DNA from: a candidate division FCPU426 bacterium
GTDB taxonomy: Bacteria; Oederibacteriota; JAAXVQ01; JAUVAV01
Length of the DNA: 24,311 bases
NCBI GenBank assembly: GCA_030637655.1
Contig: DAOWGI010000003.1
Coordinates: 1 to 24,311 of the forward strand
Direction of reading: 5' to 3'
Positions within the stretch are counted from its first letter, which is position 1. Each line of letters starts with the position of its first letter. The notes beneath the pieces are model-generated. The model did not search any database, was not told where the DNA came from, and saw only the letters and a program-made list of their open reading frames with translations. Shown here piece by piece: positions 1 to 3,313 of the stretch. Position numbers and translations under genes: made by a program.

Positions 1-104
1 AAGGGGGTAATTGCAGCATCTAAAAACCGGAAATTTTAATTATCGTTAGAGGGAAAATATAATTGACGCTGATCAACAAGTTCAACCCAAATTATTTCTG
101 CTAT

Positions 105-302
105 GTAATAGGTCAGCGAACTGCGGTTAAACAAAGGTTGTCATACCCCGACCGGAAAAGATATATAAGGACGCTTTAGGCAGCCCGCAGGTAGTAAGTA
201 GGTATCCAGTTACTTTTAATTCCTTTAAAATCAAAACCTCTGGATCCCCGATTAAAACGTTCGGGGATGACAAACAAAAAAATCCCGCGACTGATATGTC
301 AC
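105..302. mobile_element. MITE / palindromic repeat element (GTCAT...ATGAC class), copy 1
   Basis: Imperfect terminal inverted ends GTAATAGGTCAG (105) and CTGATATGTCAC (291-302). Internal palindrome TTGTCAT..CCCCGA...ATCCAG...CTGGATCCCCGA..TCGGGGATGACAA. Related sequence recurs at ~2958-3048 and ~20668-20814. Confidence 0.65.
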
Positions 303-308
303 GAACCC

Positions 309-404
309 TAAAACCGAAATATAAATTTCACAAAATCGAAGTTATCGGTTTTAAAACCAGCCTCAAATCAAGAAATCGGCCCAAATGAAAATCAACCTTT
401 TAGA
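309..404 (+). repeat. 96-bp direct repeat, copy A
   Basis: Ungapped match to 2741-2836; manual count 79/96 identical. Confidence 0.85.
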
Positions 405-774: not shown

Positions 775-2259
775 TTAGATTTTTTTTAAATCCTTTATCC
801 GCATTTTTTCTTCCTCTAAATAAGAAGATGGCGACATTGGTAATCGAGGACGTGCTTTAGTTGGCACCCACTTTTTAATTTTTCCAGTTCCTTTTTCTTT
901 TCGTTCCATATTGATACCAGTAGTAGTTACCAGAGAAAACAAGTCAAGATATCGCCGCGGACCTACTCCTTCAAAAGGCACAAAAGACACTTTTTCTTCA
1001 TTCGCTTCTTTTTCTATAGATATTGAATCATCATGTAGTTCTCTCGCAAGACTTTTGGGATATGGTTCAATATATATTACTTTCTTTATGCCCGCCGCAA
1101 GAATATGTTTTGTACAATTATGACATGGGAAAAGTGTAGTATATAAGAAAGCATTTTTAATTATCATTCCCATTCTCACGGCTTGTGTAATTGCATCCAT
1201 TTCAGCATGAACTATACGTCCATATTCGGTAATGTTTTTTAAATAATTATTTTTCTTCAACACTTCTCCAACATTTTTCTTGTTTTCATTTTTAATCAAT
1301 TTATTATCTTCTAAATCTTCAATTATTCCATTAATCAATATATTAATATGTTTAGTATTAGAATCTTCTCCCAGCACATGATCTCTTTGATCATTATTTG
1401 ATTCTACCCAATACAATCCACCGCCAGAGCAAGGAACATCGTTTGTTCCCACAGCAAGGACTTCCCCGTTCTTAGTGGCAATTGCCGCACCTACTTGTCT
1501 GGCTAAAGCCCCTGATCTTAGTGCTGCGGCTTGGGCAAAAAACATTGCATATTCTTCCCGCGTAGGTGTATGAAATGCATTACCAAAAACCAGTTCTACA
1601 AATCTTTCTATCTTTTTCTTTACTTTAGCCTTATCCTCTATTGAAATAAACACATCAGCTAAATGAAAAGTTTTACTGACCTCCTGCCCATATTTTTGCG
1701 GCTCTTTTTGATCACGTAATATTAATGTTTCAGCTTCAGAATAATAATCCTCCCGAGATGATTTATGCCTGGTTCGTGCAATATGTCCAGCTAACGACTC
1801 TTTGCGTTTTTCATGAGAGGAATATACCCCTAATAAAAAGAATCCGGTCCCATACGTCTGTCTTAAAGAAAATACTTCTTCCGATCGTTTTAAAGAACGT
1901 AAAATATATACAACATTTCCCTCTGAAGCTTCAGTATTCTTTCTCCTTTCATTTATTTCCCGAATTGCCAGAACAGAAATAGCATCGCTTTTAGTATAAT
2001 ATTCACACAATTTATTTCCAGCCTTCATTAACGAATCTATTCTGGAACATTCATCTGCTTTCTTGATTTCAAAATCGAACTCACTTTCCTGTTTTTCCAG
2101 TTGTTCAATATGTTTTTCAATCAAAACACTAAGTCTAATCTCTTCGATTCTATATCCTATTTCCTCAAATTTAGCGCGTAATATTTCCATAACATAATCA
2201 AAATCTGTTCCAACTGCACCAACTAATCCAAATACCATCTCTGTTCTTTTCATATCCAT
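775..2259 (-). CDS. Anti-phage dCTP deaminase (AvcD/Dcd-like; N-terminal P-loop kinase-like domain + deoxycytidylate deaminase domain)
   Basis: N-terminal FGLVGAVGTD P-loop-like motif and SLKRSEEV..LR..YG; C-terminal RQVGAAI, GTNDVP, and zinc motifs HAEMDAI and PCHNC. Start placed at ATG 2259 (MDMKR, preceded by GCGGGG) rather than the track's 2334, which lies inside the intron relic. Confidence 0.9.
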   Translation of the reverse strand: MDMKRTEMVFGLVGAVGTDFDYVMEILRAKFEEIGYRIEEIRLSVLIEKHIEQLEKQESEFDFEIKKADECSRIDSLMKAGNKLCEYYTKSDAISVLAIREINERRKNTEASEGNVVYILRSLKRSEEVFSLRQTYGTGFFLLGVYSSHEKRKESLAGHIARTRHKSSREDYYSEAETLILRDQKEPQKYGQEVSKTFHLADVFISIEDKAKVKKKIERFVELVFGNAFHTPTREEYAMFFAQAAALRSGALARQVGAAIATKNGEVLAVGTNDVPCSGGGLYWVESNNDQRDHVLGEDSNTKHINILINGIIEDLEDNKLIKNENKKNVGEVLKKNNYLKNITEYGRIVHAEMDAITQAVRMGMIIKNAFLYTTLFPCHNCTKHILAAGIKKVIYIEPYPKSLARELHDDSISIEKEANEEKVSFVPFEGVGPRRYLDLFSLVTTTGINMERKEKGTGKIKKWVPTKARPRLPMSPSSYLEEEKMRIKDLKKI

Positions 2260-2321
2260 AATTAACCCCGCAGCGACAGTAAAATAATGGTCAAGTTCAC
2301 AGACAATTTTATAAAACCGAA

Positions 2322-2672
2322 GTGAGTCGGCCAAAGTAACTTCCCTTTTAGCCGCTCGTAGAACGATGCGGGAACCTTTCGATTCACACCGCTTCCATTA
2401 ACACGCCTTAATATGGTTCACGCCACCTTTACGCCGGATGCCGCCTCACCAGCAAACAGGTTTCCGTCAGGCTTATCCCATGGTTTTGACCTCACGCAAA
2501 GCTATCGACGCGTTAATCAGTGGTTTGCTTACCTCATTTTATTGAGGTTTTTCCTTATCGCTCACTACCATGGCTTTTGTCCATAACAGCATAAGGTGGT
2601 TTGGAGCCTGTACCTGCATGCTAGCTCCGAAGAGCCCACCTTCATCATTTGTGCCGCTTATCTGTGGCGCAC
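2322..2672 (-). mobile_element. ORF-less, internally deleted group II intron (351 nt; IIB, resembling bacterial class D/RmInt1)
   Basis: 5' end GTGCG at 2672. A 34-nt domain V at 2394-2361 (AAGCGGTGT-GAATC-GAAA-GGTTC-CC-GCATCGTTC) has an AGC triad, GNRA loop and 2-nt bulge. Domain VI GAG-CGGCT...GGCCG-A-CTC has a bulged A at 2327 and ends in AC at 2322. Domain I-like text lies between; there is no RT ORF. Confidence 0.85.
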
Positions 2673-2695
2673 TAAGAAATTTGCTTTTCAAAATA

Positions 2696-2724
2696 AACAT
2701 ATCATTCCTGCCAAAAAGCGTCAA
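2696..2724 (-). promoter_or_regulatory. Sigma70-type promoter for the intron-leader/deaminase transcript
   Basis: TTGACG-17 nt-TATGTT with TGn extended -10; predicted start ~2689, about 17 nt upstream of the intron GTGCG. Confidence 0.6.
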
Positions 2725-2740
2725 TTGCTTTGTTCCGCCT

Positions 2741-2836
2741 TAAAATCTAAATAGAAATTTTACAAAATAGAAGCAATCGGTTTTAAAACAGTCCACAAAT
2801 CACGTAATCAGTCCAAATGAAAACTAACCTTTTAGA
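2741..2836 (+). repeat. 96-bp direct repeat, copy B
   Basis: Ungapped match to 309-404 (79/96). Confidence 0.85.
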
Positions 2837-2870
2837 TGATTTCATTTTCGTCATTGCCGGCAACACGGAG

Positions 2871-2898
2871 GTAGGGGCGTTTAATTAAACGCCCCTAC
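2871..2898. repeat. GTAG-family REP palindrome
   Basis: Perfect palindrome GTAGGGGCGTTTAATTAAACGCCCCTAC. Confidence 0.8.
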
Positions 2899-2957
2899 AA
2901 GATTCCCGATCAAGTATGGAGATGAGCGGAATACACTATTGACATTCAGCTTAAGAG

Positions 2958-3048
2958 CATTCGGACTGCGTCCGCGTCCCAAAAATCGATATCCTTTCCA
3001 GTCGGGGAATAATAACCTTTGTTTAACCGCATTTCACTGACCTGTTAC
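2958..3048. mobile_element. Degenerate MITE copy 2, inverted relative to copy 1
   Basis: 3014-3048 is the reverse complement of 105-139 with 3 mismatches in 35; similarity extends about 40 nt inward (CCCCGAC.GGAAA.GATAT...GGACGC). Confidence 0.7.
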
Positions 3049-3061
3049 TTTGTGTTTTTTC

Positions 3062-3090
3062 TTGACCTAGGATAAATAATAGACCATACT
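3062..3090 (+). promoter_or_regulatory. Sigma70-type promoter upstream of a hairpin RNA candidate
   Basis: TTGACC-17 nt-CATACT; no plus-strand gene follows. Confidence 0.55.
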
Positions 3091-3096
3091 TAATTT

Positions 3097-3189
3097 GAGT
3101 GATAAGTCCACTGTCAGTGGTTTCCGGTGTTCCCTTCCAGCGGTAGGCAAGAGCCGGAACAAGAGTGCTGACAGGGCACGCTCTTTTTT
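3097..3189 (+). ncRNA. Candidate ~93-nt structured small RNA (family not recognised)
   Basis: Starts 7 nt after the -10 box. Nested stems GAGTG/CGCTC, CTGTCAGT/GCTGACAG, TTCCGGT/GCCGGAA and CCT/AGG, followed immediately by T6. GC-rich within AT-rich flanks. Confidence 0.5.
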
Positions 3190-3313
3190 ATGGCAAATAA
3201 AGTGTCTCCCACTTTATTTTTTTCTTATATATATCAAACCATTCGTTGTCTTTTCGTTCGCATTTCCGTAAAATACCCCAGGCAAACGTCTTTGCTGAAT
3301 TTAAGAGTAAATT

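Follow-up and report, generated by a model that had tools for sequence, protein, structure and literature searches.

The 24,311-nucleotide (nt) stretch analysed here (the window: contig DAOWGI010000003.1, positions 1 to 24,311, of assembly GCA_030637655.1 from a candidate division FCPU426 bacterium; GTDB lineage Bacteria; Oederibacteriota; JAAXVQ01; JAUVAV01) carries a 352-nt group II intron relic on its minus strand (window 2672 to 2321). This element is very probably the inert, decaying remnant of a reverse transcriptase (RT)-encoding, RmInt1-like (class D) group II intron that retrohomed into a cognate non-coding site and then decayed without constraint. A previous sequence-only reading had proposed a group II mini-intron devoid of an open reading frame (ORF), with a GUGCG start, domain V and domain VI; all three are present on the minus strand and are accompanied by matches to the Rfam families RF01999 and RF00029. 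The parts of the relic and its flanks are listed below, where L080 is a metagenome contig carrying a full-length relative, C65 is a contig of the same genome carrying another copy, and EBS and IBS denote exon- and intron-binding sites.

2321-2672, minus strand: whole group II intron relic (Rfam matches at both ends; boundaries from unoccupied versus occupied target sites)
2673-2684, minus strand: 5' exon target, GCAAA (IBS2-like) then TTTCTTA (IBS1 position) (comparison with unoccupied GCAAAGTCCTA^TCAGT, the caret marking the insertion point)
2668-2672, minus strand: intron 5' end GTGCG (direct reading; identical 5' end in copy C65 and L080)
2415-2672, minus strand: domain I remnant, 258 nt, closing helix CGCCAC with GTGGCG retained (alignment to five full domain I sequences)
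2527-2643, minus strand: match to RF01999 (group-II-D1D4-2), three hairpins and a helix with mismatched closing pairs (94.6 bits, E 1.8e-18)
2530-2531, minus strand: junction of a 25-nt domain I deletion (alignment to full domain I sequences)
2496-2501, minus strand: EBS2-like CTTTGC (direct reading; complementary to GCAAA of the 5' exon)
2478-2483, minus strand: CCATGG, collapsed EBS1 hairpin (alignment to L080 and other full sequences)
2410-2411, minus strand: junction of a ~1.45-kb deletion comprising domains II, III and IV, the J2/3 linker and the RT gene (alignment to L080)
2395-2410, minus strand: leftover of the RT gene 3' end and domain IV (translation; layout of L080)
2361-2394, minus strand: domain V with AGC triad, GAAA loop and CC bulge (RF00029, fold, copy alignment)
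2324-2357, minus strand: domain VI with bulged A at 2327 and two broken stem-tip pairs (fold, copy alignment)
2314-2320, minus strand: beginning of the 3' exon, TCGGTTT; consensus of the family TCAGTYA (direct reading of 2 unoccupied sites and of the 3' flank in 11 copies)

The boundaries were fixed by comparing occupied and unoccupied target sites within this genome. Contigs C119 (...GAAAGCAAAGTCCTA^TCAGTTAAT) and C104 (...AAAATTCCTA^TCAGTAATA) carry the same upstream flank without an intron; the occupied sites read ...TTCCTG^GTGCG...CTCACC^TCAGTCAAC on C65 and ...TTTCTTA^GTGCG...CTCACT^TCGGTTTTA at the relic. Of the limits proposed earlier (2322 to 2672, 351 nt), the 5' end stands, and the 3' end moves to 2321 because the unoccupied sites read CCTA^TCAGT and the RF00029 match stops there. 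This makes the bulged A the seventh base counted from the 3' terminus, its position also in L080 and in a second intron family described below, and the ligated junction predicted as TTTCTTA^TTCGGTT is corrected to TTTCTTA^TCGGTT. The reading of CTCAGT after ...CAC as exon, which would place the 3' end at 2322, was rejected, every unoccupied site being CCTA^TCAGT or CCTG^TCAGT without an extra base.

The covariance-model match at 2322-2394 on which the sequence-only reading had staked its proposal was found: RF00029 (domains V and VI) matched from 2396 to 2321 with 39.6 bits (E 3.4e-6) when Rfam was run with a relaxed threshold, 0.4 bits below the curated gathering cut-off of 40. With the RF01999 match, it places the element beyond chance. 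Small ORFs of 41-61 amino acids (aa) overlap the relic.

When metagenome contigs were scanned with a 33-nt pattern from domain I, a single one matched: L080, which bears a full-length 1849-nt intron of the same family. A 19-nt pattern of the 5' end (17 specified bases) gave 39 loci in genome contigs, about the number expected by chance, and in BLAST comparisons none extended past the pattern. Identity between relic and L080 is 209 of 290 columns over domain I, gaps included (72%), and 52 of 60 positions from 16 nt before domain V onward. Aligning the relic to this intron and to an Sr.md.I1-like intron, as the sequence-only reading had advised for class D, mapped three deletions.

By far the largest is the loss of ~1.45 kb: relic positions 1-270 align to L080 up to its position 325, and relic positions 264-323 align to L080 1763-1822. 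The earlier claim that domains II-IV and the RT had been lost holds, whereas the junction, formerly put at about 2395-2400, lies at about 2410 to 2411, since 2395-2410 is a leftover of the RT gene. Read from 2412 to 2398, this leftover is ATT AAG GCG TGT TAA, that is IKAC followed by a stop codon, 5 nt before domain V; its L080 counterpart is FKVC and a stop, and the copies C30 and L027 show the same layout of the ORF end as the relic and L080. The IKAC-stop remnant is direct proof that the relic descends from an ORF-bearing intron. The relic itself contains no RT, and the three matches to RVT_1 in its genome are all partial and all on other contigs.

The other two deletions lie within domain I. 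The relic was aligned there to five full sequences: L080, three copies of the second family (L033, L029 and C75) and the Sr.md.I1-like intron. At CCATGG, 17 nt have been lost between 2483 and 2482, between two CATG repeats, L080 reading CCATG-TACGTAGGAATAG-CATGG. A hairpin occupies this position in all five full sequences, and that of L080 is EBS1 because its loop TAGGAA is complementary to the intron's own 5' exon, TTCCTA. The sequence-only reading had supposed exactly this loss from the layout of class D introns, and that layout fits: the Sr.md.I1-like intron has GTCGAAACC-hairpin-GGGATAAG, and its domain I scores 115 bits with RF01999, the model that matches the relic. A deletion besides that of domains II-IV had thus been foreseen rightly, but there is also a third, of 25 nt between 2530 and 2531. 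The missing stretch is AGGTATATATATGGGAGACGAATGA in L080, and its core, GA(C/T)GAA(C/T)GA, is kept in all full sequences and in copy C65. Clear microhomology is confined to two junctions, those of the EBS1 deletion (CATG) and of copy C65 (TCGA); at the 25-nt and 1.45-kb deletions it amounts to 1-2 nt at most, with the parent approximated by L080.

What remains of domain I is partly degraded. Minimum-free-energy folding of the whole domain did not reproduce the expected architecture, and the RNAalifold consensus of the five full sequences (80 pairs) was used instead. Against it the relic has 63 pairs formed, 10 broken and 7 missing; the numbers broken in full sequences are 3 in L080, 0-1 in the second-family copies and 6 in the Sr.md.I1-like intron. 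The retained CTTTGC, perfectly complementary to GCAAAG of the unoccupied C119 site, may have paired with GCAAA of the 5' exon in the manner of an EBS2. Such complementarity fits a cognate insertion, EBS1 having gone either during cDNA synthesis or afterwards.

Domains V and VI are better preserved. The 76 nt fold at -28.4 kcal/mol (z -3.73), a value equalled by none of 200 shuffles, and 27 of the 30 consensus pairs are formed, against 27-30 in other copies. In domain VI, each of two substitutions at the stem tip disrupts pairing. The CC bulge of domain V, previously singled out as an oddity in place of the usual AC, is a trait of the family and not a lesion: all six other aligned copies have a two-base bulge, CC in C30, L027, L028, L032 and L080 and AC in L034.

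To verify that this arrangement exists in the sampled DNA, the window was compared over 1700-3300 with Logan contigs assembled from four cold-seep DNA runs of one study, a junction counting as bridged when 31 letters on each side were covered.

X1 record 1, 1700-2447: bridges the large junction
X1 record 3, 2418-2725: bridges the two small junctions
X2 record 10, 2382-2898: bridges the two small junctions
X3 record 19, 2403-2735: bridges the two small junctions
X4 record 24, 2342-2602: bridges the large and both small junctions

Together, the contigs of all four runs cover every junction of the relic with zero differences; X1 and X4 bridge the large junction, and every run bridges the two small ones. 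The joint at which X1 record 1 'goes back' corresponds to the second copy of a 90-nt repeat (window 317-404). Collapse of a full-length intron by a short-read assembler, which the sequence-only reading had named as a possible refutation, might be suspected in a 120-contig assembly where several intron copies lie at contig ends. These independently built contigs exclude it, and the junctions, including that of the ORF remnant, are specific to the relic, so that its probability is practically nil.

The affiliation of the intron was judged from the product of L080, a 416-aa RT/maturase (TIGR04416, 423 bits) whose stop codon lies 5 nt before domain V. Over residues 1-413 it is 56.7% identical to a 419-aa ltrA encoded beside an IS66 tnpB on a Sinorhizobium medicae plasmid. 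From this neighbour and the length of the protein, both as described for Sr.md.I1, we infer that the S. medicae intron is Sr.md.I1, which has been assigned to class D (PMC4615759). RF01999 matches the domain I of that intron at 115 bits and is common to it and the relic, which therefore has the domain I type of class D introns. The L080 protein also shows the class D traits of about 419 aa and no DNA-binding or endonuclease domains; of these the relic retains only IKAC-stop. At the C-terminal motif given for class D, LX3AX3PXLF[V/A]HW (PMC4615759), L080 reads LVNTYKANPKLFENW, in which L, P, L, F and W match and A, [V/A] and H do not. The lineage is accordingly filed as putatively class D-like (RmInt1-like) by descent, with a partial match to the motif.

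BLAST and Rfam searches covered this genome, 101 relatives and 99 genomes of the phylum, two overlapping sets that both include this genome. The intron family was seen only here and in three other genomes of the same taxonomic family, the four together holding 17 copies, none of them complete. Both ends survive in 4-5 of these fragments, the 3' end alone in 6 and the 5' end alone in 3, and 3 are internal pieces.

C65: ~254 nt, both ends; domain I fused, at a TCGA repeat, to the 3' half of domain V
L031: ~142 nt, both ends
L039: both ends; consists of 5' bases, part of domain IVa, and domain VI
L037: both ends, chimeric; 8-nt 5' end from the second family
C30, L027, L028, L032, L034, L035: 3' end only
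C41, C81, C105: 5' end only
C37, L036, L040: internal pieces

No deletion junction recurs among the 17 copies, those of every copy being different, and no second copy of the relic's arrangement was found in the 101 relatives or the 99 genomes of the phylum. The full-length parent that the sequence-only reading had proposed to seek in the genome did not turn up, and the further mini copies are differently broken fragments: no full-length copy is assembled in any of the four genomes, although repeats often fail to assemble. A full-length parent may thus be present in this genome but unassembled.

Contiguous homology measured back from the 3' end in the 13 copies with a 3' region extends over 41, 43, 44, 54, 62, 81, 87, 87, 91, 113, 386, 406 and at least 895 nt. 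Ten of these 13 break-points fall within 113 nt of the 3' end of a 1849-nt element and cluster just 5' of domain VI and of domain V. In this the family is like LINE elements, which are truncated at the 5' end, and unlike RmInt1, for which 3' loss has been reported. An RT that stalls or jumps, slippage at DNA hairpins, or longer survival of short pieces could each account for the clustering.

The target of the family is a short motif. The pattern CAAAKTCCTRTCAGT has 5 exact matches in this genome and 10 across five of the 11 genomes of the taxonomic family, and its reversed control has 0. The ~20-nt unoccupied motif, (GG)AAA-GCAAA-K-TCCTATCAGT, in several copies follows, within a few bases, promoter-like sequences that belong to unrelated genes. 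The features concerned are as follows.

Target motif sites: contigs C119:7861, C30:57042 and 57566, C43:53168, C92:6977, C104:5706 and C42:5605 of this genome; also in genomes G001, G003, G007 and G010
2696-2724, minus strand: promoter-like site TTGACG, 17 nt, TG, TATGTT (promoter scan), 24 nt upstream of the insertion point
775-2262, minus strand: anti-phage dCTP deaminase gene, 495 aa (PADLOC dCTPase E 3.7e-157; Pfam dCMP_cyt_deam_1 E 2.9e-19)

The promoter-like module occurs without an intron on C119 and C104. The relic sits in the leader of the dCTP deaminase gene because the target motif lies there; it is in sense orientation, with the ATG of the gene 58 nt downstream. A scan of the AT-rich spacer returned 8 promoter matches against 2.7 expected in shuffles, all at 9/12. 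One of them, a weak match on the minus strand from 2334 to 2306, spans the intron-exon boundary (TTGGCC in domain VI, 17 nt, TAAAAT in the 3' exon; 9/12), possibly by chance. A second, partial dCTP deaminase-like gene lies at the start of contig C10 (4-867, plus strand), 50% identical over residues 204-485.

The history that best accounts for these observations would begin with the retrohoming of a full-length intron, in sense orientation, into the cognate motif GCAAA-G/T-TCCTA^TCAGTYA, which at this locus closely follows a promoter-like sequence and belongs to the leader of the defence gene. Three internal losses would have followed insertion (25 nt of domain I, the 17-nt EBS1 hairpin, and ~1.45 kb with domains II-IV, J2/3 and nearly all of the RT gene), together with helix-breaking substitutions, and the relic would now be transcribed, if at all, as a 352-nt part of the leader. 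No reading frame is interrupted, and therefore nothing selects for splicing; lying in non-coding DNA, the relic would be tolerated. Both ends are kept because all three deletions are internal. Their neat retention had been thought to need explaining, but internal deletions keep the ends by definition, and the family shows all kinds of fragments.

Domain I with EBS1 and domain V with J2/3 make up the minimal catalytic core. Of the features of splicing-competent introns, the relic has GUGYG and domain I, a domain V with AGC, two-base bulge and GNRA loop, and a domain VI whose bulged A lies at 7-8 nt; it lacks an EBS1 loop for the 5' exon, domains II, III and IV, and J2/3. Neither splicing nor mobility is expected, because EBS1 (5' exon pairing), J2/3 with domain III (core) and domain IVa with the protein (maturase) are gone. 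Most likely, then, the relic neither splices nor moves, and its anatomy (EBS1, J2/3, domains II-IV and protein absent) bears out the similar suspicion of the sequence-only reading. Decay of this kind has precedents: most bacterial group II intron copies are described as truncated or inactivated (PMC4424553), and relatives of RmInt1 are reported to decay by fragmentation, with an internal deletion in one copy (PMC4181065), although the RmInt1 literature cited here reports loss of the 3' end (PMC4496777, PMC4181065).

Several points weigh against an inert remnant decaying freely. Domains V and VI are well paired, no worse than in other copies, and domain I still largely fits its Rfam model (94.6 bits); either the relic is young, therefore, or it is under partial constraint. 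For domain I, pairs were counted against a consensus built from full-length sequences, which biases the counts towards them. L080, only 72% identical in domain I, is not the exact parent, so deletion edges and microhomologies are approximate. The lack of splicing is deduced from anatomy rather than observed. Finally, the orthologous locus was not found: in the 11 genomes of the taxonomic family, homologues of the dCTP deaminase reach 45-46% identity at best. The upstream DNA of three of these homologues was read and is unlike the leader of the relic, so that it offers no pre-insertion allele.

Among the alternatives, one is that the deletions were made during retromobility itself, the RT having stalled or jumped at the bases of stable hairpins to leave a copy dead on arrival. 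The clustering of 10 of 13 break-points within 113 nt of the 3' end, 5' of domains VI and V, speaks in its favour, as do the removal of a hairpin between CATG repeats in the EBS1 deletion and the proneness of group II RTs to template switching reported elsewhere (PMC3683930). However, three separate deletions and point changes better fit repeated events than one; slippage of DNA replication at hairpins or short repeats gives the same junctions (CATG in the relic, TCGA in C65); the deletion in L040 runs from the intron into the 5' exon leader and seems to postdate insertion; what has been described for RmInt1 is, instead, loss of the 3' end (PMC4496777, PMC4181065); and short fragments may simply last longer. 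We consider this origin unlikely. Its extension to the whole lineage, which would home into (GG)AAA-GCAAA-K-TCCTA^TCAGTYA and produce broken copies in retromobility by stalling or jumping of the RT at the bases of domains V and VI, in the manner of dead-on-arrival LINE copies, appears quite unlikely; were it true, leaders, including those of defence genes, would be seeded with structured domain V/VI modules. Use by the host, with the relic acting either as a hybrid promoter (-35 TTGGCC, -10 TAAAAT) or as a structured leader of 352 nt to tune the dCTP deaminase defence gene, would suit its sense orientation between the promoter-like site (2724 to 2696) and the gene, the second promoter-like match across the intron 3' end (2334 to 2306, 9/12), the persistent folding of domains V and VI, and the suggestion by Toro and colleagues that fragments near genes can persist and evolve (PMC4181065; PMC4615759). 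This is nevertheless improbable, given that each of the 8 promoter matches (2.7 expected) is weak at 9/12, that helix-breaking substitutions argue against structural constraint, that no orthologue or second copy was found among the 101 relatives, 99 phylum genomes and 11 family genomes to show conservation, and that other copies precede unrelated genes owing to the location of the target motif, not to selection.

Two further readings would keep the relic active as an intron. For a working mini-intron spliced in trans by proteins or RNAs of other introns, as thought for the group III and degenerate introns of Euglena, one may cite the intact 5' GTGCG, domain V, and domain VI with its bulged A 7 nt from the end, as well as the other group II introns and RT gene fragments of this genome. 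Such a function is very improbable with the EBS1 loop, J2/3, domains II-IV including the protein-binding IVa, and a conserved segment of domain I all gone, and an insertion in a non-coding leader has no need to splice. Moreover, the three RVT_1 matches of the genome are all partial, and sister copies bear lesions that preclude catalysis (half of domain V in C65), indicating a family that decays freely. Mobilisation in trans as a non-autonomous miniature retroelement, as is known for the ORF-less TeI3 introns of Thermosynechococcus, would agree with the retention of both ends and with the existence, in the same bacterial family, of related ORF-less introns of ~620 nt with intact ribozymes. Trans-mobilised ORF-less introns, as described for TeI3, share break-points across copies and show good EBS/IBS pairing (PMC2882425), whereas here each copy with both ends has its own junctions, the arrangement of the relic is single-copy among the 101 and 99 genomes, and EBS1, needed for reverse splicing, is gone, leaving only the EBS2-like pairing; this possibility is extremely remote.

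Several known systems are close to the relic. On the evidence here, the relic is of the same class as the RmInt1-like fragments of Sinorhizobium (FRE652 and the internally deleted AK83 copy; Toro et al., 2014, PMC4181065): as described for these, it is inactive, intergenic, near a gene and accompanied in its genome by related copies, and an internal deletion is documented there for one RmInt1 copy. It differs in that the RmInt1 relatives reported in that study lose the 3' terminus, whereas the relic has both ends and 10 of the 13 copies of its family with a 3' region are short 3'-terminal pieces. Unlike Sinorhizobium, its host is an uncultured bacterium from cold-seep metagenomes, and unlike RmInt1, which targets an insertion sequence, its family targets a short motif often behind promoter-like sequences. 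TeI3n of Thermosynechococcus elongatus (Mohr et al., 2010, PMC2882425) is another close parallel, described as having a large internal deletion from domain I to IVa with both ends kept, as non-functional, and as residing, like the relic, in a genome rich in related introns; it belongs to another intron class and host, and the relic has three deletions and has lost domains II-IV. The ORF-less TeI3 introns of the same source are also derived by deletion from an ORF-bearing intron, with remnants of the ORF end still visible, but are reported to have an intact ribozyme, one set of break-points across 17 copies and good EBS/IBS pairing, none of which applies to the relic. The group III and degenerate group II introns of Euglena plastids share its very small size and its domain I-like and domain VI motifs (PMC4424553). 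According to that account they interrupt essential genes and must splice; the relic lies in a leader, keeps domain V and is one of many broken siblings.

As an inactivated and fragmented group II intron, the locus is ordinary, this being the commonest state of such introns in bacteria. It is nonetheless a clean, mapped example, with three internal deletions, a four-codon remnant of the RT gene, broken siblings, and unoccupied sites that fix the boundaries to the base. To specialists, the targeting of a motif often behind promoter-like sequences and the pile-up of break-points at domains V and VI may be of interest.

Two further intron families were encountered. The second, which starts GTGTGCCACGAAG, is represented by L033:1152-1775 (minus strand), L029:1160-1780 (minus strand) and contig C75:3383-3805 of this genome, that is by two copies in genome G002 and a 5' part here. 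It is ORF-less, ~620 nt long and has all ribozyme domains, with RF01999 matches of 79-84 bits and, in L033 and L029, RF00029 matches of 58-62 bits. The EBS1 loops vary between copies; in L029 the loop is TGCTGG, complementary to CCGGCA in the 5' exon of that copy. These introns are candidate ORF-less elements mobilised in trans. A third intron, starting GTGCGCCACGAAGGAGCG, was found on contigs C114 (1-700, minus strand) and C113 (1-150, minus strand) of this genome. It is inserted exactly at the YADD-coding bases of the RT gene of another intron, its second copy lying at a YADD-like site. Nested homing of this kind is known for Methanosarcina introns.

The surroundings of the relic contain several other elements. 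An Rfam DUF3800-V RNA (full-length match, window 3091-3188, plus strand; 65.3 bits, E 8e-13) has a promoter-like sequence directly upstream (TTGACC, 17 nt, CATACT; 3062-3090) and a terminator-like hairpin with a T run at its 3' end (3165-3179), and lies antisense to, and just past the 3' end of, a peptidase U32 gene. On its own strand it is not followed by a long ORF; no search for DUF3800 was made. Window 2996-3049 (...GGGGAATAATAACCTTTGTTTAACCGCATTTCACTGACC...) is another highly repeated element, with contig depth of 100-600 against ~5-15 around it and a similar stretch near window 100-150. An intergenic repeat module of ~90 nt ending ...TTTCGGTTTTAGGG is present at window 2749-2836 and 317-404 and on contigs C57, C87 and C28 of this genome, upstream of promoter-like sequences at several loci. 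Finally, a perfect 28-nt palindrome, GTAGGGGCGTTTAATTAAACGCCCCTAC (window 2871-2898), occurs on more than 10 contigs of the genome, with a read depth of up to several hundred.

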